Of a stretch of DNA of 64,000 nucleotides, positions 4,813-36,569 are shown one piece after another. Numbering within the stretch: position 1 is the first letter of the stretch; each line of letters starts with the position of its first letter. The notes under the pieces were generated by a model. It worked only from the letters and a program-made list of their open reading frames with translations. It had not been told where the DNA came from and made no database searches. The stretch covers positions 2,746 through 66,745 of the forward strand of contig JAFQHN010000015.1 of the NCBI GenBank assembly GCA_017397935.1, given 5' to 3'. The position numbers were made by a program, and so were the translations under genes. The stretch comes from Bacillota bacterium. GTDB lineage: Bacteria; Bacillota; Dehalobacteriia; UBA4068; UBA4997.

Positions 4813-6126
4813 TTAAATTTTTTGAGAGAACTTGGCACCGCCCTCGCCAAACAGACGGTCCAGAATAATCGAAACGGCACTGCGGACAGAAAGATGGTTG
4901 TAAGCACCTGCTCCGTAAATGGGACGCAGAACATGGTCTGCTCTTGCCATCATCTCATCGGTAAGGCCCCAGCCGGTGCCGAAAAGTAAGAGATAAGGAC
5001 GGTCACTTTCGGCAATTTGGCGGCGCATTTCCGGGTAATCCACCATTTTGGGGCCGGCTTGGGCCGATGTAGCCACCAACAGCGGTTTTTGGCCGGTCTG
5101 GCGCTCAATATCAGCAATGGCCTGTTCTACGCTGTCGCAAAGCTGAATATGCCCCAATGCTTCGTGGCGGTCGGGGTTATAGCGCGCACCAAAGCCGTAC
5201 TCCCAATGCTTGACCAGAGAGCCGATAAGCTCCTTCTGGGCGGCGGCAGGCTGTACCAGATAATAACCGTCCAGCCCGAAAGTGGTGGCGGCACGGGCAA
5301 TATCGTGGATATCCAAATTGGTGACCGAGGTATTGATGACCTCATGCTTTTTGTTATAAACGGGATAATGCACCAGCGCTACCCACACACGGCTGTGGCC
5401 AGCTTTTTCGGCCTTGATACTGTCCAAAATCCGCAAATCCTCCTGCGTAAGCGGTGCTTTGGCCAGCAGCTCGGGGCGTCGCTCATAGGTACGGCGCAGG
5501 CTTTGCTCCCGGCGCCAGCGGCGGATCTCCTCATGGTTGCCGCCCTGCAAAACCTCGGGTACGGTCAGGCCGGCAAACTCCGGCGGACGGGTATACTGGG
5601 GATATTCCAGCAGACCTTCGCTGAAACTCTCCTCCTCGCTGGATTCATCATGGCCCAGGGCACCGGGCAGCAGGCGAATAATGGAATCAGCCATCACCAT
5701 GGCAGGCAGTTCTCCGCCCGTCAGCACAAAATCACCGATGGAGAAAACATCGGTGGCCAGCTGGTCTTCCACACGCTGGTCAATACCCTCATAGTGCCCG
5801 CAGATGAAAATAACCTGCTCTGCTTTGCTCAATTCCTGGGCTGCCTGCTGGTCAAAAACACGGCCGGCCGGGCTGGTGATGATAACCCGGGCGTTTTCGG
5901 TCTGCCGCAGGTCGGCAATCGCCTCAAACAGCGGCTCAGGCTTCATCACCATACCTGCCCCGCCGCCATACAGCTTATCATCGGTCAAGCCGTGTTTGGG
6001 GCCGGTGTAATCACGGATATTTTTTACATTCAAATCAATCAGTTGATTTTTTACGGCTCTGCCCACAATGCTTTGCTGCAAGGGTGCAAACATCTCCGGG
6101 AAGAGCGTCAAGATGTCGATACGCAT
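4813..6126 (-). CDS. trmD: tRNA (guanine37-N1)-methyltransferase TrmD fused to a C-terminal SpoU/TrmH-like SPOUT methyltransferase-like domain (437 aa)
   Basis: N-terminal ~245 aa is canonical TrmD (MRIDILTLFPEMF…GGGAGMVM…); C-terminal ~190 aa shows SPOUT-like motifs (LLFGTGWGLTDE…, NHLSVRSAVSIILDRL). Overlaps rimM stop; classic position after rimM. Confidence 0.85.
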   Translation of the reverse strand: MRIDILTLFPEMFAPLQQSIVGRAVKNQLIDLNVKNIRDYTGPKHGLTDDKLYGGGAGMVMKPEPLFEAIADLRQTENARVIITSPAGRVFDQQAAQELSKAEQVIFICGHYEGIDQRVEDQLATDVFSIGDFVLTGGELPAMVMADSIIRLLPGALGHDESSEEESFSEGLLEYPQYTRPPEFAGLTVPEVLQGGNHEEIRRWRREQSLRRTYERRPELLAKAPLTQEDLRILDSIKAEKAGHSRVWVALVHYPVYNKKHEVINTSVTNLDIHDIARAATTFGLDGYYLVQPAAAQKELIGSLVKHWEYGFGARYNPDRHEALGHIQLCDSVEQAIADIERQTGQKPLLVATSAQAGPKMVDYPEMRRQIAESDRPYLLLFGTGWGLTDEMMARADHVLRPIYGAGAYNHLSVRSAVSIILDRLFGEGGAKFSQKI

Positions 6127-7407: not shown

Positions 7408-8823
7408 TTATCGGCCTAAAAACTTGGAGAATACGCTTTCAATGGTGGTGCGTCTGCTCTTGGTTTTGGTATTGCTTTTGCCCTTTTTATTGCGGGGCTT
7501 GTGGATGCGATCTGTTTTCATCATGCCGGAATCGGTCAGCTTCTTCATCACCTTGCGCATCTCATCAAACTGCTTTAACAGGCGGTTGATTTGCATAACC
7601 TGCATACCGCAGCCCTTGGCAATACGCTTTTTGCGGGAAGCATTGATGATGGAAGGATTCTGACGCTCTTCCTTGGTCATCGAGAGCACGATGGCTTCTA
7701 CACGGCGGATTTCCTTCTCGTCAATCTGCAAATCTTTCAGCTGCTTGCCCATACCGGGAATCAGCGAGAGCATTTCGCGCATATCACCCATCTTGCGGAT
7801 CTGCTGCATCTGGTCCAGAAAGTCATCCAGAGTGTAGCTGGCGGTACGCATTTTGTTTTCCAGCTCTCTGGCTTTCTGCTCATCAACACTGGCCTGAGCT
7901 TTCTCAATCAGCGTCAGCATATCACCCATGCCGAGGATTCGGGAAGCCATACGGTCGGGATAGAACAACTCCATAGCGTCCAGCTTCTCACCCATGCCGA
8001 CAAATTTAATCGGTTTGCCGGTGACGGATTTAGCCGAAAGTGCCGCGCCGCCTCGGGTATCGCCGTCCATTTTGGTCAGCACCAGGCCGTCAATCTCCAA
8101 CTGCTCGTTGAAGGTTTCGGCCACTTTAATGGCGTCCTGACCGGCCATGGCGTCAACCACCAGCAAAATTTCATGCGGCTGTACGGTTTCTTTGATGTCC
8201 TTCAATTCCTGCATCAAGGCTTCATCAATATGCAGACGGCCGGCGGTGTCGATAAGCACCATGTCATTGTTGTGGGCCTTGGCGTGTTCAACAGCCTGGC
8301 GGGCAATTTCCACGGGGCTTACCTTATCACCCAGCGAGAAAACTGCAATATCCAACTGCTCGCCCAGCACCTGCAACTGCTTGATGGCGGCCGGACGGTA
8401 AATATCGGCGGCAACCAACAGCGGACGTTTATGTTTATTCTTATAGATGTTAGCAATTTTAGCAACAGAAGTGGTCTTACCGGAGCCTTGCAAACCGGCC
8501 ATCATGATAATCGTGGGCGGCTTGCTGGCCATATTGATGGAGGATTGCTCCGAACCCATCAGGATGGTCAATTCCTCCTGCACAATTTTTACAACCTGCT
8601 GTCCGGGAGTAAGACTCTCCAAAATATCAGCGCCAAGTGCGCGCTCTTTAACGGTGGCCACAAAATCCTTAACAACTTTGTAGCTGACGTCGGCTTCCAG
8701 CAGAGCCATACGCACGGTTCGCATTGCCTCGTTAATATCTGCCTCGGTCAGCTTGCCCTTGCCGGTCAGCTTCTTAAAAGTGTCCTGCAATTTATCTGCC
8801 AAGCTGCTGAAAACTGCCATCAT
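7408..8823 (-). CDS. ffh: Signal recognition particle protein Ffh (SRP54)
   Basis: N, G (GLQGSGKTT, DTAGR) and M domains; C-terminal basic tail. Confidence 0.95.
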   Translation of the reverse strand: MMAVFSSLADKLQDTFKKLTGKGKLTEADINEAMRTVRMALLEADVSYKVVKDFVATVKERALGADILESLTPGQQVVKIVQEELTILMGSEQSSINMASKPPTIIMMAGLQGSGKTTSVAKIANIYKNKHKRPLLVAADIYRPAAIKQLQVLGEQLDIAVFSLGDKVSPVEIARQAVEHAKAHNNDMVLIDTAGRLHIDEALMQELKDIKETVQPHEILLVVDAMAGQDAIKVAETFNEQLEIDGLVLTKMDGDTRGGAALSAKSVTGKPIKFVGMGEKLDAMELFYPDRMASRILGMGDMLTLIEKAQASVDEQKARELENKMRTASYTLDDFLDQMQQIRKMGDMREMLSLIPGMGKQLKDLQIDEKEIRRVEAIVLSMTKEERQNPSIINASRKKRIAKGCGMQVMQINRLLKQFDEMRKVMKKLTDSGMMKTDRIHKPRNKKGKSNTKTKSRRTTIESVFSKFLGR

Positions 8824-8852
8824 CTCACCTCTTTCAAAAATTCTGTTATGTT

Positions 8853-9203
8853 TTATGCGTTTTGGGGTTCATTATTGCCGTTTATCAGTTGGCCCAATTC
8901 ATCGCAGGCAGCCTTAACCAGCGCCCAGCTTTGTTCGGCCTCGGCCTGCTGCAAGTTCTGCAATATCAGGCGCTCCCGGCGGTTTTTGGCAATCAGCCCC
9001 AACTTCTCGTCGTAGTTTTGCAGCAATTCTTCTCCACGGCGGATAGAATCGAAAACGGCCTGACGGCTGATATTAAGCATGGCGGCAATTTCACCCAGAG
9101 AATAATCCTCATTATAAGTAAGTGCCAAAGCCTGCTGCTGCTTATCCGTCAGCAAGCAGCCGTAAACATCAAACAGCAAAAGCTTTATGCCCAGCTTATC
9201 CAT
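8853..9203 (-). CDS. ylxM: YlxM/UPF0122 small helix-turn-helix protein (SRP-operon associated)
   Basis: Sigma-70 region-4-like HTH (…LSLGEIAAMLNISRQAV…); immediately upstream of ffh; start set at MDKLG with GAGGT RBS. Confidence 0.75.
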   Translation of the reverse strand: MDKLGIKLLLFDVYGCLLTDKQQQALALTYNEDYSLGEIAAMLNISRQAVFDSIRRGEELLQNYDEKLGLIAKNRRERLILQNLQQAEAEQSWALVKAACDELGQLINGNNEPQNA

Positions 9204-9321
9204 GGTTTCAACCTCATTCCGTGCTATCAAGTTTTTCAACTTGACACATTCAACTTGCTTATTATACAACAGCCTCCATGTTCTGTCAAGGGTTTTTGCT
9301 TAACATCCAACATTTTTTTTC

Positions 9322-9765
9322 TTAAACCAAACCTTGGCGCAGCCAGCGCACCAGCCGCAGCAGGATAACCGATAAGGCAACCCAAATCAGCGTGTAATAC
9401 AGGCAAATTTGCCCTAGAAAATTAAACGGCAGCGCAGAATAATCCCATACCCCGGCATCTGCATAAAAATTAAACGCCATGCCGAAAAGTAACTCTACTG
9501 TTGTGATAATCAGCCCGCATAACAGCGCCTTAGCCAAATCCGGCAAACCGCCTGCCCTTCTGTCCAGATAATCCACCGCCCAAACGCAGATCGCACCGGC
9601 CATCAGCATTGACCAATGAGTATGCCCCCGCCAGAAAATCTCAACCAGACCATAGCCCAGGGCACCGGCCAACAGCAGCAGTATGTGCCCAAAAAACCTG
9701 CTCTCGGCCAGACTTTGCCAGTTTTTGATATATGCCGTGTGGGATAAATTGTGCAAAATCAACAC
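9322..9765 (-). CDS. Integral membrane protein of unknown function (4 predicted TM helices)
   Basis: Hydrophobic 147-aa ORF; GTG/TTG start ambiguity; no family assignment possible by eye. Confidence 0.5.
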   Translation of the reverse strand: MLILHNLSHTAYIKNWQSLAESRFFGHILLLLAGALGYGLVEIFWRGHTHWSMLMAGAICVWAVDYLDRRAGGLPDLAKALLCGLIITTVELLFGMAFNFYADAGVWDYSALPFNFLGQICLYYTLIWVALSVILLRLVRWLRQGLV

Positions 9766-9850
9766 CGCCTTCTAATAAAAATTATTATAAAAATAAACCC
9801 CGCCAGCCTGGGTAAGCTGTACGGGGTTATTATGAGCCAAATATTAAATT

Positions 9851-11281
9851 TTAACGCAGTTTATTGTTGTCGAAAACTCCCAGCTTGAATACCTGCTTCA
9901 ATTTCTTCATCTTATCATCGGTATAAGGCGGGAAACGCAAAGGATTGGGCGTGGCGTGAGCCTTAAACACCGAACGCTGATTGGAAAATTCCAGGAAGCC
10001 GGCCTCACCGTGATAACGGCCCATGCCGCTGGCACCGTTGCCGCCAAAGGGCAAGCCGGGGTGCAGCATATGCGTCAGCGTGTCATTGATGCACAGACCG
10101 CCGCTGCGCAGCTTATATTGCACCATGCGGTTGGTTTCATCAGATTCATTGAAAACATAGCAGGCCAAAGGTGTGGGATGATTATTGATAAAACGAACGG
10201 CGTTGATAACCTTGTCATAAGTTAAAACCACCAAAATAGGGCCAAAAATCTCCTCCTGCATAACCGGGTCATCCAGATTAACATCGGTTAAGATGGTGGG
10301 GGCAATCTTCAAAGCCTGTTCAACAACCTGCCCGCCAAAGAACAAACGGGCGCTGTCACGGTAGCGGTTGATATAAGAGTTCAGGCGGTCAAAATGCTGC
10401 TTGTTGACAATACGGCCGTAATCAGCAGATTTAAGCGGATTTTCACCGTAAAGCTCACGGATGGCAAACACCAGCGAGGACATAAATGCTTCCTTCTGCT
10501 CCTCGCAAACCAGCACATAATCAGGGGCCACACAGGTCTGGCCGGCATTTAACAGCTTGGCAGAGGCGATACTTTTGGCAGCTTTGTAGATGTTGGCGGT
10601 GTTGGTTACGATGCAGGGAGATTTGCCGCCCAACTCCAAAGTAACCGAGGTCAGGTTCTTGGCAGCGGCAGTCATAACTTCTCTGCCGACAGCCGGGCTG
10701 CCGGTGAAGAAAATATGGTCAAATTTCTCAGCTACCAGGGCCTTGGCCACATCAGGGCCGCCGGTAACCACATGGACATAGTTTTCGGCAAAGGTGCTGT
10801 TGATCATTTTTTCCAGCACGGCAGAGGTGTGCGGTGCATGCTCAGACGGTTTTACCACGCAGGTATTGCCGGCCAAGATAGCGGAAATCAACGGAATAAT
10901 CGTCAACTGCACAGGATAGTTCCACGGCGAGAGAATAAGAACACAGCCCTTGGGGTCATATTGCACATGAGCTTTGCCGTGCATGGTCATCTTGGTGGGC
11001 AGTAAATTCTTGTTTTTCATCCAGCCGCCGCCTTTCTGGAAGGCAAGGTCAAACTCCTGCATAACGGGCAGCAGCTCGGTGGTATAGGCTTCGTATTCAG
11101 ATTTCCCCAAATCCTGCTGCAAGGCGTACAGCAGCTGGGATTCGTAATTTTTCATGGCGTCACGCAAATCGGCCAGCGCATTGGTGCGGAATATCTTGCC
11201 CGACATATCGTGAGTGGTCTGGCTGGTTAAAAAATAGGCTTTCTGGGCGGCAACCAGCTCAGAATAAGCAGTTTTGCTCAT
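9851..11281 (-). CDS. NAD(P)+-dependent aldehyde dehydrogenase family protein (class-3-like)
   Basis: ALDH motifs (ELGGKSP, catalytic Cys region …GQTCVAPDYVLV…, FGP…); start at MSKTAY after GGAGGA RBS. Confidence 0.85.
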   Translation of the reverse strand: MSKTAYSELVAAQKAYFLTSQTTHDMSGKIFRTNALADLRDAMKNYESQLLYALQQDLGKSEYEAYTTELLPVMQEFDLAFQKGGGWMKNKNLLPTKMTMHGKAHVQYDPKGCVLILSPWNYPVQLTIIPLISAILAGNTCVVKPSEHAPHTSAVLEKMINSTFAENYVHVVTGGPDVAKALVAEKFDHIFFTGSPAVGREVMTAAAKNLTSVTLELGGKSPCIVTNTANIYKAAKSIASAKLLNAGQTCVAPDYVLVCEEQKEAFMSSLVFAIRELYGENPLKSADYGRIVNKQHFDRLNSYINRYRDSARLFFGGQVVEQALKIAPTILTDVNLDDPVMQEEIFGPILVVLTYDKVINAVRFINNHPTPLACYVFNESDETNRMVQYKLRSGGLCINDTLTHMLHPGLPFGGNGASGMGRYHGEAGFLEFSNQRSVFKAHATPNPLRFPPYTDDKMKKLKQVFKLGVFDNNKLR

Positions 11282-34006: not shown

Positions 34007-34018
34007 ATTGTTAACAGC

Positions 34019-34045
34019 ATAATAATAAATAATAATAATAATAAT
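34019..34045. repeat. Trinucleotide microsatellite (AAT)3-A-(AAT)5
   Basis: ataataataaataataataataataat read directly after pyrE stop. Confidence 0.8.
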
Positions 34046-34085
34046 CGGAGTACACAGTTGGCCGTGCGCTCCGGTTATTTTTTTG
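34046..34085 (+). terminator. Weak terminator candidate after pyrE (CGGAG…CTCCG stem plus TTATTTTTTT)
   Basis: Short stem, long loop, strong T-run. Confidence 0.35.
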
Positions 34086-34141: not shown

Positions 34142-35089
34142 CTATAATTCCGGCAGCATCTGCACCAAAAGCTCCTTATCCTCCTGCTGACTGACGATGA
34201 TACGGGGCGGATTCGCCAATGCCCACTCCGGATCCACTGTCGCCAGCACCGCATATCGCTCATAGAATTTCGCCGCTTGCTCAAAAAGCACACTCTCTGC
34301 CCGCTGCCGAGCTTCCACCGCCTGCTCCATAGTATCAAAACTTCCCAACTCAAATGTCCGCTTCTGAAAAGTTATCTTTGCAACATACCGTCCGCGTATC
34401 AAATACACTCCACGCGTTCCGGTAGTGCTGTTCTTGGGCACCTTACGGCTGCGTATCCTTTCCAAAGAGGTTCCGTCTACATGCGTCAGGTAAGTATGCA
34501 AACTTTGTTCATGTTCCCTCTTGCGGCATCCACAGCTCTGCATAGCACTATACATCAGGTTATTATAACTGACATCTGCTTCATTCCCACAATCACAAAC
34601 GCAGTGCCATATTACTGATCCTCGCTCACCTCGCTTATCTGTTGCAAAAAGTGCCGTCAGCCGTCCAAACCTCTGCCCGGTAATATCCGTATGCGCATAG
34701 TGTCCACCATGCACCTTAGACGCACAATGAGTCCGTTTGCCGGTCAGCAGCAGCGTAGCCGGCACCTCATACTCCCCACCGCAGGCACACCGGCAACGCC
34801 ACCAGACCCCACCGTTTCTATCCTGTCGCTCTGCCCGGCTAAGCACTGTCAATTCTCCGAAAACCTGTCCGGTCAGTTCACGTGTATTTACCGCTGCAAC
34901 ATTATCCCGCCGCAGGCAGCCGCAGCTAAGTGAGCCTCCATACAGCAAACTACGCTCCAATACCGCACGCTCGGTACCACATTCACAGCGGCACCACCAT
35001 TTCCGTTCGCCCTTATCTGTCAAAATGCTGTCATCCAGCACTGTCCACCGTCCAAAGGTCTTACCTTTCAAATCATGCTTTGCCGCCAC
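34142..35089 (-). CDS. Protein with three tandem Cys-rich zinc-ribbon-like repeats and a C-terminal AP2-like DNA-binding domain (315 aa)
   Basis: Repeats at aa ~9-60, ~73-130, ~139-195 share G-x-x-FG-x-(L/W)T-(V/A)L…W-(W/H)-C-x-C-x-CG-x-E…(S/H)C(G/A)(C/S); C-terminus …TTGTRGVYLIRGRYVAKITFQKRTFELGSFDTMEQAVEARQRAE resembles AP2/HNH-associated DNA-binding domain. GTG start, weak RBS. Confidence 0.6.
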   Translation of the reverse strand: MAAKHDLKGKTFGRWTVLDDSILTDKGERKWWCRCECGTERAVLERSLLYGGSLSCGCLRRDNVAAVNTRELTGQVFGELTVLSRAERQDRNGGVWWRCRCACGGEYEVPATLLLTGKRTHCASKVHGGHYAHTDITGQRFGRLTALFATDKRGERGSVIWHCVCDCGNEADVSYNNLMYSAMQSCGCRKREHEQSLHTYLTHVDGTSLERIRSRKVPKNSTTGTRGVYLIRGRYVAKITFQKRTFELGSFDTMEQAVEARQRAESVLFEQAAKFYERYAVLATVDPEWALANPPRIIVSQQEDKELLVQMLPEL

Positions 35090-35195
35090 TAAACATCACC
35101 GCCTGTCGGTACGGCCTTATAATCTGCCAATCGTTTATTTCTGTACTGCAATCACAGTTATGATTTTGCTCTGCCGGGTGTGTCGCAGCTTTTTG

Positions 35196-35215
35196 TGACA
35201 TAATTCATATTATGT
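35196..35215. repeat. Inverted repeat, left arm (tgacataattcatattatgt); perfect reverse complement of 35459-35478
   Basis: Read directly; each arm is itself an imperfect palindrome (acataat-N-attatgt) with an asymmetric core that is inverted between the two copies. Confidence 0.9.
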
Positions 35216-35380
35216 TGTATTTTTATATCATAGCCCAAAACCCGACCGATTTTTGAACATACCAAAACACACCCTCCTAACAATTACTTAAAAAATTGTC
35301 CAGAGGGTGTTATTGTGCTGCCTGCCTATAAGAGTGCAGTCATAAGAGAACATAAAATATGCTTATGCTTATATTATAAG

Positions 35381-35409
35381 TTGATTTTTTTTGCTATGCT
35401 TGCTACAAT
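35381..35409 (+). promoter_or_regulatory. Sigma-70-like promoter inside the IR-bounded segment (TTGATT-17 bp-TACAAT), currently pointing away from the AP2-like gene and into the 3' end of the recombinase gene
   Basis: -35 TTGATT 35381-35386, 17-bp spacer containing T8 tract, -10 TACAAT 35404-35409. Confidence 0.5.
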
Positions 35410-35458
35410 AGAGATGGTTAAAACTCGATAAACATACATACTGATAGTGTGCACCTTG

Positions 35459-35478
35459 ACATAATATGAATTATGTCA
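35459..35478. repeat. Inverted repeat, right arm (acataatatgaattatgtca); 15 bp from recombinase stop codon
   Basis: Exact reverse complement of 35196-35215. Confidence 0.9.
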
Positions 35479-35493
35479 TGATTTTTTTGCTGC

Positions 35494-36333
35494 CTATATC
35501 ACCAATCCCAGGCGCTCAATTTTTCTGCGGTGCTCCACGCCGGTGGTCATAATATAAATGCGGGTGGTGTTAATGCTGCTGTGCCCCAAAATATCGGCCA
35601 GCTTGGCAATATCCTTTTCGATACCGTAGAAGGTGCGGGCAAACAGTTTGCGCAGGTTGTGCGGAAATACCTTGCCGGCCTCAACACCGGCTTGCTCGCA
35701 CAAAGCCTTCATCTGCGCCCAGATACGGCTTCTGTTCAAGGGTTTTCCGCTTCGGGTGAGAAATATCACGCCGGAGCGGATTTTTTCTTTTCGGGCATAA
35801 TCCAACAGCAGCTTTCTAAGTTTTCCCGGTATCAAGACGGTTCGGGTTTTGCCTTTACAGTTAACCGTCACCTCACCGCGGGCCACATTTTCCACCGTGA
35901 AACAGCGCAGTTCTGAAACACGAATGCCCGTACCGCAAATCGTTTTCATCACCAGTTGCAGCTGCGGTTTTCTTTTGGCTGCGTCCAGCAAGCGCATATA
36001 TTCCGCCTTGGTCAGCTCCTGTTCCTCAGCACAATATACCTGCTTCTGCTGTTTAATAGCTTTTACCCTGCAATCCGCCCAGCCGAGAAAGTCCAGCAGA
36101 CTATTCAAGCTGGCCAGCATGGAGTTGATTGAACGCACCGCATACTCTCTCATCTGCAAATACTTTTTGTAGGCCATCACTATCTCCTTCGTAACAACCT
36201 CATTACCAACATAAACTACAAAAGCACGGACATCACGGAGATATTTCTCCACAGTTGCCGTGCTTTTTTCTTCCCTTATTAAATATTGGCGATATGATAA
36301 AATCTGGTTTTGTGTGATTTTCCTTTCTTCCAT
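35494..36333 (-). CDS. Tyrosine-type site-specific recombinase (phage-integrase/XerC-D family, 279 aa, no N-terminal arm-binding domain)
   Basis: Catalytic-domain signature R…HxLR…(H/Y)…Y: …TGIRVSEL…, …HNLRKLFA…, …GHSSINTTRIY…. Confidence 0.85.
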   Translation of the reverse strand: MEERKITQNQILSYRQYLIREEKSTATVEKYLRDVRAFVVYVGNEVVTKEIVMAYKKYLQMREYAVRSINSMLASLNSLLDFLGWADCRVKAIKQQKQVYCAEEQELTKAEYMRLLDAAKRKPQLQLVMKTICGTGIRVSELRCFTVENVARGEVTVNCKGKTRTVLIPGKLRKLLLDYARKEKIRSGVIFLTRSGKPLNRSRIWAQMKALCEQAGVEAGKVFPHNLRKLFARTFYGIEKDIAKLADILGHSSINTTRIYIMTTGVEHRRKIERLGLVI

Positions 36334-36457
36334 TTTGGGTACCCTCCTGATGGTTATAAGCTGATTTGTGTTGTATCATTATTGTACCCATTTTCCAAAT
36401 AAAATTTGCTGCAAATCACCAAAAAGCAGTTTTTTAGCTGTTTGTGGCATAAAAAAA

Positions 36458-36493
36458 CACCCTGTTCTCATTACAAACAGGGTGCTTTTATTC
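36458..36493 (-). terminator. Terminator downstream of tRNA-Thr (GCACCCTGTT/AACAGGGTG hairpin plus T-run on minus strand; also hairpin plus U-rich on plus strand)
   Basis: aacaccctgttctcattacaaacagggtgc flanked by A7 and TTTTATT. Confidence 0.6.
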
Positions 36494-36569
36494 TGGAGCT
36501 GGAGACGTGACTTGAACACGCGACCTGCTGATTACGAATCAGCTGCTCTACCAACTGAGCTACACCAGC
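36494..36569 (-). tRNA. tRNA-Thr (anticodon CGU)
   Basis: Minus strand GCTGGTGTAGCTCAGTTGGTAGAGCAGCTGATTCGTAATCAGCAGGTCGCGTGTTCAAGTCACGTCTCCAGCTCCA; anticodon loop TTCGTAA; one U-U mismatch in acceptor stem. Confidence 0.8.

Follow-up and report, generated by a model that had tools for sequence, protein, structure and literature searches.

We analysed a 64,000-nt stretch of DNA from a Bacillota bacterium of the class Dehalobacteriia (GenBank assembly GCA_017397935.1, contig JAFQHN010000015.1), here called the window, with attention to a gene for a 315-aa protein that has three cysteine-rich repeats and a C-terminal AP2-like domain. The gene lies next to a short promoter-bearing segment framed by inverted repeats, which in turn lies next to a gene for a tyrosine recombinase (Table 1). 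Our best explanation, in which we place moderate confidence, is that the protein is a DNA-binding regulator of fibre and pilus gene clusters whose gene was taken over as the only cargo of an invertible promoter. The gene would then probably alternate randomly between ON and OFF. An earlier sequence-only reading of this stretch had proposed a phase-variable DNA-binding protein, and this is still the natural interpretation, since the gene is the sole sense target of the switch and its product has an architecture of the DNA-binding type.

Cysteine-rich repeats and AP2-like domain of the 315-aa protein

The reading frame of 315 aa with a GTG start was confirmed. Its start position is matched by homologues (e.g. 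MAKHDL... in P0002, the nearest relative, with 86% identity), and a Shine-Dalgarno-like GGCGGTGA ends 6 nt upstream of the GTG; the ribosome binding site, earlier described as weak, is therefore not especially so. Neither a signal peptide nor a membrane segment was recognised in the protein sequence.

The architecture given in the sequence-only reading, namely three Cys-rich repeats followed by an AP2-like domain and no catalytic domain, was borne out by our searches. Judged by pairwise BLASTP (E=2e-12 and 4e-12), the three repeats are truly homologous to one another. In a joint alignment of 24 repeat copies, the W, the C-x-C-x-C-G and an L were invariant and the distal Cys residues nearly so. 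The Cys pattern also held across 21 full-length homologues (53-86% identity), in which C33/35/37/56/58, C99/101/103 and C163/165/167/186/188 were invariant, and C122 together with H127 was kept in at least 90% of the sequences. The motif can be written as CxCxC-G ... (S/H)-C-x-C, with five Cys per repeat, and it differs from the paired CxxC knuckles on beta-hairpins that are typical of a zinc ribbon or a treble clef; the zinc-ribbon or treble-clef likeness seen in the sequence-only reading is therefore tentative. The repeats are probably zinc-stabilised, Cys-rich beta modules, the invariance of the Cys residues being what suggests the metal.

The window protein gave no significant match in Pfam or NCBIfam and contained no nuclease, recombinase or methyltransferase domain according to these two collections. 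A profile of the repeats found no match among the sequences of the Protein Data Bank (PDB), and Pfam likewise holds no model for them. Weak, sub-threshold Pfam echoes were seen among the 21 homologues, for Zn_ribbon_CSL in 12 and for Acetone_carb_G in 15. We also considered the repeats as cryptic AP2 domains; this was ruled out, because hhalign indicated no relation between the repeat profile and the AP2 profile.

Modelling with AlphaFold2 and the family alignment (mean pLDDT 77) gave three strands and a short helix for every repeat. In the C-terminal part, three strands span residues 226-251, and after them come a long helix at 254-285 and a tail that forms a small hairpin. Modelled separately, the C-terminal domain adopted the same fold (pLDDT 80, pTM 0.63). 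Its best structural matches were plant AP2 domains in their DNA-bound form, in agreement with the AP2-like assignment of the sequence-only reading, and a search with Foldseek using the whole model was uninformative. The predicted model shows the three-stranded antiparallel beta-sheet and alpha-helix of the AP2/ERF-integrase superfamily. At the level of sequence, the window protein did not match Pfam AP2 (PF00847, gathering score 33.3 bits) even at E<=10, and the Pfam model matched 5 of the 21 homologues, none of which reached the threshold (best E=7.8e-4). P0125, which is more distantly related, scored 57.3 bits against the 33.3-bit cutoff, the phage relative gp28 reached 26.4 bits, and the relative P0121 carries HTH_3. 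A profile of the C-terminal domain found a sole weak match among PDB sequences, the AP2 domain of WRI1 (E=0.33), and phmmer with the window protein against the same sequences returned noise only, e.g. MamM. The AP2-fold identity is thus supported structurally, by the predicted model, and the 315-aa protein lies outside formal Pfam membership. Such a fold would be consistent with sequence-specific binding of double-stranded DNA.

The sequence-only reading had called the protein unusual, which cannot be upheld in the sense of rare, as its family has thousands of members. A word-indexed search gave at least 2,900 relatives, among them an identical protein that is titled 'transcriptional regulator' in a Firmicutes metagenome-assembled genome at NCBI. 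An exhaustive search of 1.84 billion cluster representatives matched 52,548 of them at E 1e-3, 15,290 at E 1e-10 and 1,038 at E 1e-30, with one to seven matched stretches per protein and protein lengths up to ~900 aa. Some relatives pair the repeats with HTH_3 or with a bona fide AP2 domain. Judged by these matches, the family is very large and uncurated, with no Pfam, NCBIfam or PDB entry covering the repeats, and in the literature searched we found no description of either the protein family or the switch family.

Fibre and pilus neighbourhoods of the family

In gut Clostridia, members of the family usually lie last in fibre or pilus operons of the sortase/SipW/TasA-like kind, in the same direction as the other genes and with very small gaps. 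Of 80 family loci, 45 had sortase, SipW, TasA-like or FctA genes within 6 kb. A sortase gene was present at 35 of these loci, on the same strand in all 35 and just upstream in 32. Culturable bacteria with a family gene next to a sortase gene include Holdemania sp. Marseille-P2844 (L010), Brotocaccenecus cirricatena (L012) and Blautia fusiformis (L068). In three annotated contigs (L168, L169 and L171), the family gene is located inside operon-like clusters with gaps down to 3 nt, together with genes for a SipW-like peptidase, an FctA-type pilin, TasA-like small secreted proteins, LPXTG-like proteins and sortases. We also noticed tandem paralogues of family members in about 12 of the 80 loci (L171 at 8001-9968, L001, L002, L003, L005, L007 and others); behind the tandem members of L171 comes a protein of 468 aa that carries two DUF4379 domains, which are probably zinc ribbons.

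The recombinase leads to similar genes. For it, we compiled the 80 closest-relative metagenome loci (62-86% identity). The first cargo gene after the switch was a SipW-type signal peptidase in 30 of 54 recombinase loci, followed by several TasA/camelysin-like genes; other first cargo comprised surface proteins of 1,150-1,320 aa and helicase-like, XRE-type HTH and methyltransferase-like proteins. SipW, TasA-like (Peptidase_M73), sortase or pilin genes lay co-directionally downstream at 43 of the 80 loci, and a sortase gene was located just upstream of the recombinase in ten. Cargo of these other kinds, including a small XRE-type HTH protein, was noted in L157, L159 and L163. The cargo reading frame after site 2 of L163 resembles an N6-adenine DNA methyltransferase (motif EPACGNGNFL), and L163 could be a true phasevarion. 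For the window protein, which had been suggested as a phasevarion-type regulator, the term does not apply in its strict sense as there is no methyltransferase domain; the logic of one switch acting on many genes could work likewise.

The protein could be linked to fibres or pili without being a transcription factor, for instance as an RNA-binding or post-transcriptional factor or as a cytoplasmic partner of the secretion and sortase machinery. This we regard as unlikely, given that the best structural matches of the C-terminal domain are DNA-bound AP2 domains of plants, that relatives join the repeats to other DNA-binding domains (HTH_3 and AP2), and that the protein has neither a signal peptide nor a membrane segment.

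Another explanation is suggested by the phage relatives. The best PHROG matches of the window protein bear the label 'HNH endonuclease' (phrog_374, E=3e-53, four stretches), relatives are present in 143 phage records, and copies are often tandem or several per genome. The protein may then be a decayed or domesticated DNA-binding scaffold of a homing endonuclease, or the gene of another selfish element, with no part in host regulation. However, an HNH domain was found neither in the window protein (Pfam, NCBIfam) nor in three phage relatives that carry the label, and full-length conservation, Cys residues invariant across species and a strictly co-directional synteny with sortase genes speak against a selfish-element gene, so that we consider this origin quite unlikely. 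As the three labelled relatives lack HNH, the label looks like annotation transfer, and on the Cys-repeat phage proteins it is probably a propagated mis-annotation. These three proteins have the same Cys-rich repeats, and their best sub-cutoff Pfam matches (E<=0.01) differ: Sigma70_r4 for PORT_117 of Enterococcus phage Porthos (L174), Acetone_carb_G for EVB98_006 of Rhizobium phage RHph_N3_2 (L175) and AP2 for gp28 of phiCDHM11 (L173). The context of gp28 in phiCDHM11, behind the lysis genes, gives no functional hint. In a neighbour-joining tree the family was star-like and its four switch-linked copies formed no clean clade, hence the tree does not decide between one capture by the switch and several.

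The switch and its probable inversion

The inverted repeat and the adjacent tyrosine recombinase reported in the sequence-only reading were both recovered. The repeat has perfectly matching arms of 20 nt that enclose 243 nt. Each arm contains a core of the form ACATAAT-N4-ATTATGT, of which the window holds two copies against none expected by chance, and the spacers of the two cores are mutually reverse-complementary. The recombinase matches Phage_integrase (E=2e-25) and is XerA/XerD-like according to Pfam and NCBIfam; the motifs GIRVSEL, KGKTR, HNLRK, GHSS and RIY can be seen in its sequence. It has thus the catalytic R-K-H-R-H/W-Y set, by sequence, of a candidate cognate tyrosine recombinase, and inverted repeats around a short promoter-bearing segment give the locus the anatomy of a switch of the fimS/RecV type.

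In the assembled orientation, the promoter, which has a TG motif, reads towards the recombinase gene and enters it from its 3ʹ end, in antisense; since it faces away from the 315-aa gene, the assembled state corresponds to OFF. The hairpin inside the segment is terminator-like and could stop read-through from the recombinase gene. On the other side, pyrE converges on the 3ʹ end of the 315-aa gene, and because the other orientation of the promoter is antisense to the recombinase, the 315-aa gene is the sole sense target, as the sequence-only reading had stated. In the inverted state of 35196-35478 the junction would be spelled ...CTGATAGTGTGCACCTTG followed directly by ACATAATATGAATTATGTCACAAAAAGC.

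Sister switches of the same recombinase family invert naturally, for which the metagenome loci provide direct evidence. The combination of recombinase and sites is present in hundreds of metagenome loci. A pair of sites 210-320 nt apart was found in 58 of the 80 recombinase-relative loci, and most of the others were incomplete. Within single species groups, the segment was assembled both ways across metagenomes, and the conserved promoter TTGATT-17-TATAAT flips along with it. In the group with TCGC spacers, most loci are in the forward orientation and L104, L106, L117, L119 and L147 are inverted, and in the group with TCTT spacers L092 and L093 are forward and L094 is inverted. Three copies of ACATAAT-N4-ATTATGT were observed in L089, L092, L096, L097 and L144, with the extra one 42-51 nt from a member of the pair; the third copy could permit alternative inversions or deletions.

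The order recombinase-switch-gene is also present in three other species (L021, L025 and L081). There the arms of the sites are kept and the 4-nt spacers vary (TCAT, GTGG, TTGC), being always reverse-complementary between both sites, a pattern that is the signature of a functional inversion site. The promoter is aimed at the gene in L025 and L081. A search for inverted repeats with exact arms upstream of 71 family loci and 67 controls returned the switch in L081 only, a short repeat in L046 (14-nt arms), which is probably due to chance, and nothing in the controls (0 of 67); it missed L021, where the interior is masked with N, and L025, where the repeat arms are shorter. In L021 (UBA6418 genome), every position of the switch from one site to the other (5726-5914) is given as N, either because the database masked it or because mixed orientation left a gap in the scaffold. 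In L025 (Oscillospiraceae SIG573), a 218-aa protein is encoded at 483-1139, between the switch and the family gene, so that the switch drives a two-gene unit; its N-terminal hydrophobic segment with AYLT resembles a TasA-like signal.

Samples that contain the window's own species include SRR12529392, ERZ28653878 and the source of GCA_017409985.1. In this species, two independent contigs (L085 and L087) start precisely where the gene-proximal repeat has its inner edge. Such breaks match what a population of mixed orientation does to an assembly graph, which makes inversion in this species likely.

DNA homology of the window to other recombinase loci is restricted to the recombinase gene and the switch: it sets in ~80 nt ahead of the recombinase start and stops at the first site or a little beyond. 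Recombinase and switch thus form a generic unit whose cargo varies. The housekeeping genes around this unit differ between the window, L025 and L081, and the recombinase-plus-switch unit may be an inserted, portable one.

In the mechanism that we propose, the recombinase would recombine the two inverted ACATAAT-N4-ATTATGT sites and thereby flip the 243-nt segment. In the OFF state, the promoter would be directed antisense into the recombinase gene and the hairpin would insulate the cargo gene, and in the ON state, after inversion, the promoter would transcribe a leader of ~180 nt and then the 315-aa gene. The protein would be cytoplasmic and bind DNA via its AP2 domain, and the repeats would contribute specificity or oligomerisation. 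It would act in trans, as an activator or a repressor of fibre or pilus genes elsewhere in the genome, which would in this way become phase-variable.

Several observations weigh against this proposal. All four assemblies of the window's own species that reach into the segment are in the OFF orientation. No SipW, TasA-like, sortase or pilin genes were found by tblastn in the 64-kb window, which therefore offers no target. It is also unusual for a regulator gene to come last in its operon, at the 3ʹ end. Finally, both DNA binding and zinc binding are putative for every member of the family.

The common orientation of the four assemblies would also be expected if the switch in this species were a fossil locked OFF and the gene effectively silent. 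We think this improbable, though, as the repeats are still perfect 20-mers, the recombinase reading frame is intact with its catalytic residues present, and the 315-aa gene is likewise intact, with a product 86% identical to P0002; moreover, the breaks in two assemblies fall precisely on the repeat's inner edge, as mixed orientations would give, and the sister switches do invert. As for the 315-aa protein being an accessory or directionality factor, as the sequence-only reading had also suggested, which would bind near the sites via its AP2 (integrase-arm-like) domain and bias inversion, this is very improbable: although the AP2 fold is common to integrase arm-binding domains and the gene adjoins the recombinase in four species, tblastn (E<=1e-3) detected no family member within 5 kb at any of the loci of the 80 closest recombinase relatives, yet these loci keep their site pairs and invert, the recombinase co-occurs with the family at only 2 of the 80 species-genome family loci (L021 and L025), and the gene is cargo downstream of the switch, so its product would be absent in the OFF state.

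Coordinates are listed in Table 1. Outside the tabulated features, an A/T-rich simple repeat (AATAAT-type) at 34014-34046 and an adjoining terminator-like hairpin at 34059-34077 were observed, the former in the gap where pyrE and the 315-aa gene converge. The recombinase gene is directly preceded, on its upstream side, by a tRNA-Thr(CGT) gene (36494-36569, minus strand) with a terminator-like hairpin at 36453-36489.

Table 1. Positions of the 315-aa protein gene, its predicted domains and the switch in the window.
Feature	Position	Strand	Description
Gene of the 315-aa protein	34142..35089	minus	three Cys-rich repeats and AP2-fold domain; GTG start, stop included
Repeat 1	34904..35068	minus	residues 8-62; three strands and short helix; C33, C35, C37, C56, C58
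Repeat 2	34703..34879	minus	residues 71-129; C99, C101, C103, C122; H-C ... H127 in place of distal CxC
Repeat 3	34508..34690	minus	residues 134-194; C163, C165, C167, C186, C188
AP2-fold DNA-binding domain (predicted)	34235..34420	minus	residues 224-285; strands 226-231, 234-241, 244-251, helix 254-285
Family-specific C-terminal tail	34145..34234	minus	residues 286-315; short helix (conserved W289, A290, N293), then beta-hairpin
Fixed leader	35090..35195	minus	gene-proximal site to GTG; carries Shine-Dalgarno-like GGCGGTGA
Gene-proximal inverted repeat	35196..35215		core ACATAAT-TCAT-ATTATGT at 35198-35215, read on the plus strand
Invertible segment	35216..35458		243 nt
Hairpin	35269..35310	minus	strong, inside segment; followed by GUUUUGG in gene direction; dG -26.7 kcal/mol, z = -5.5
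Promoter	35381..35409	plus	TTGATT-17 nt (ending TGC)-TACAAT, inside segment, pointing away from gene
Recombinase-proximal inverted repeat	35459..35478		core ACATAAT-ATGA-ATTATGT at 35459-35476
Xer-like tyrosine recombinase	35494..36333	minus	279 aa; R, K, H-x-x-R, H, Y candidates visible

Significance and comparison with known systems

The locus joins two common, uncurated elements: a self-contained recombinase-plus-inverton module and the Cys-repeat/AP2 family. Gut Clostridia (Oscillospiraceae, Lachnospiraceae, Christensenellales) are abundant, and to our knowledge their surface structures and the regulation of these are almost unstudied. If the 315-aa protein is a fibre regulator, the locus would offer a testable means of setting the adhesion or biofilm fibres of commensals ON or OFF, and an entry point to a DNA-binding module that recurs, unannotated, in tens of thousands of protein clusters. 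If it is not, a likely widespread 'HNH endonuclease' mis-annotation would still be corrected. Tentatively, one may go further: the ~60-aa CxCxC...CxC unit could be a new, modular and very widespread DNA-reading repeat of bacteria and phages, and its three-repeat-plus-AP2 form the master regulator, in gut Clostridia, of sortase/SipW fibre clusters. Here that form would be under the control of an inverton, and an entire surface-fibre regulon would become phase-variable via a single transcription factor. We find this larger claim rather doubtful.

Compared with the known AP2/ERF domains (PF00847; PDB 2gcc of AtERF1, 7et4 of TEM1 and 7wq5 of WRI1), the window protein is sub-threshold in Pfam, its helix is much longer (~32 residues) and followed by a family-specific tail, and its domain is preceded by three Cys-rich repeats outside any curated family. 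Bacterial and phage AP2 domains are also known in fusion to HNH endonucleases, where, in contrast to the window protein, the HNH domain is present.

As a switch, the closest working analogue is cmrRST of Clostridioides difficile, with cwpV and E. coli fimS also close. The fimS element, acted on by FimB and FimE, is an invertible promoter of ~300 bp with its own tyrosine recombinase gene adjacent, and it sets fimbriae ON or OFF. It shares with the window switch the inversion of a promoter beside a recombinase gene and an orientation-dependent transcription into that gene. The sequences are unrelated, and the fim promoter drives a fibre subunit directly, like the sister SipW loci, whereas the cargo in the window is a putative regulator.

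In C. difficile, the cmrRST switch places a phase-variable regulator under inversion by a tyrosine recombinase (10.1101/690230 / PMC6837544), and the cwpV switch is also inverted by RecV (PMC2784873). The window resembles these RecV switches (cmrRST, cwpV, flgB) in having a short invertible segment, inverted repeats and a tyrosine recombinase in a Clostridium-class bacterium. The likeness to cmrRST extends to transcription regulators under inversion, with one flip changing a set of surface and behaviour traits. Unlike RecV, which acts from elsewhere, the window recombinase is encoded beside its switch, and its site has a distinct ACATAAT-N4-ATTATGT core; its cargo product is AP2-type and not a response regulator as in cmrRST, and the system is known from sequence alone.

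Peptidases of the SipA/LepA type occur in the FCT pilus loci of Streptococcus pyogenes (PMC7900414), and Clostridium perfringens has a sipW-bsaA matrix operon (PMC7395162). The family resembles the regulators of Gram-positive pilus islands (RlrA, RofA/Nra, EbpR) in that the regulator gene travels with sortase, pilin and signal-peptidase-like genes. It differs from them in being unrelated, in sitting at the 3ʹ end of the operon and not upstream or divergent, and in that its regulatory role is putative. The logic of the switch is familiar. What is new, and can be tested, is the protein family together with its tie to fibre operons.
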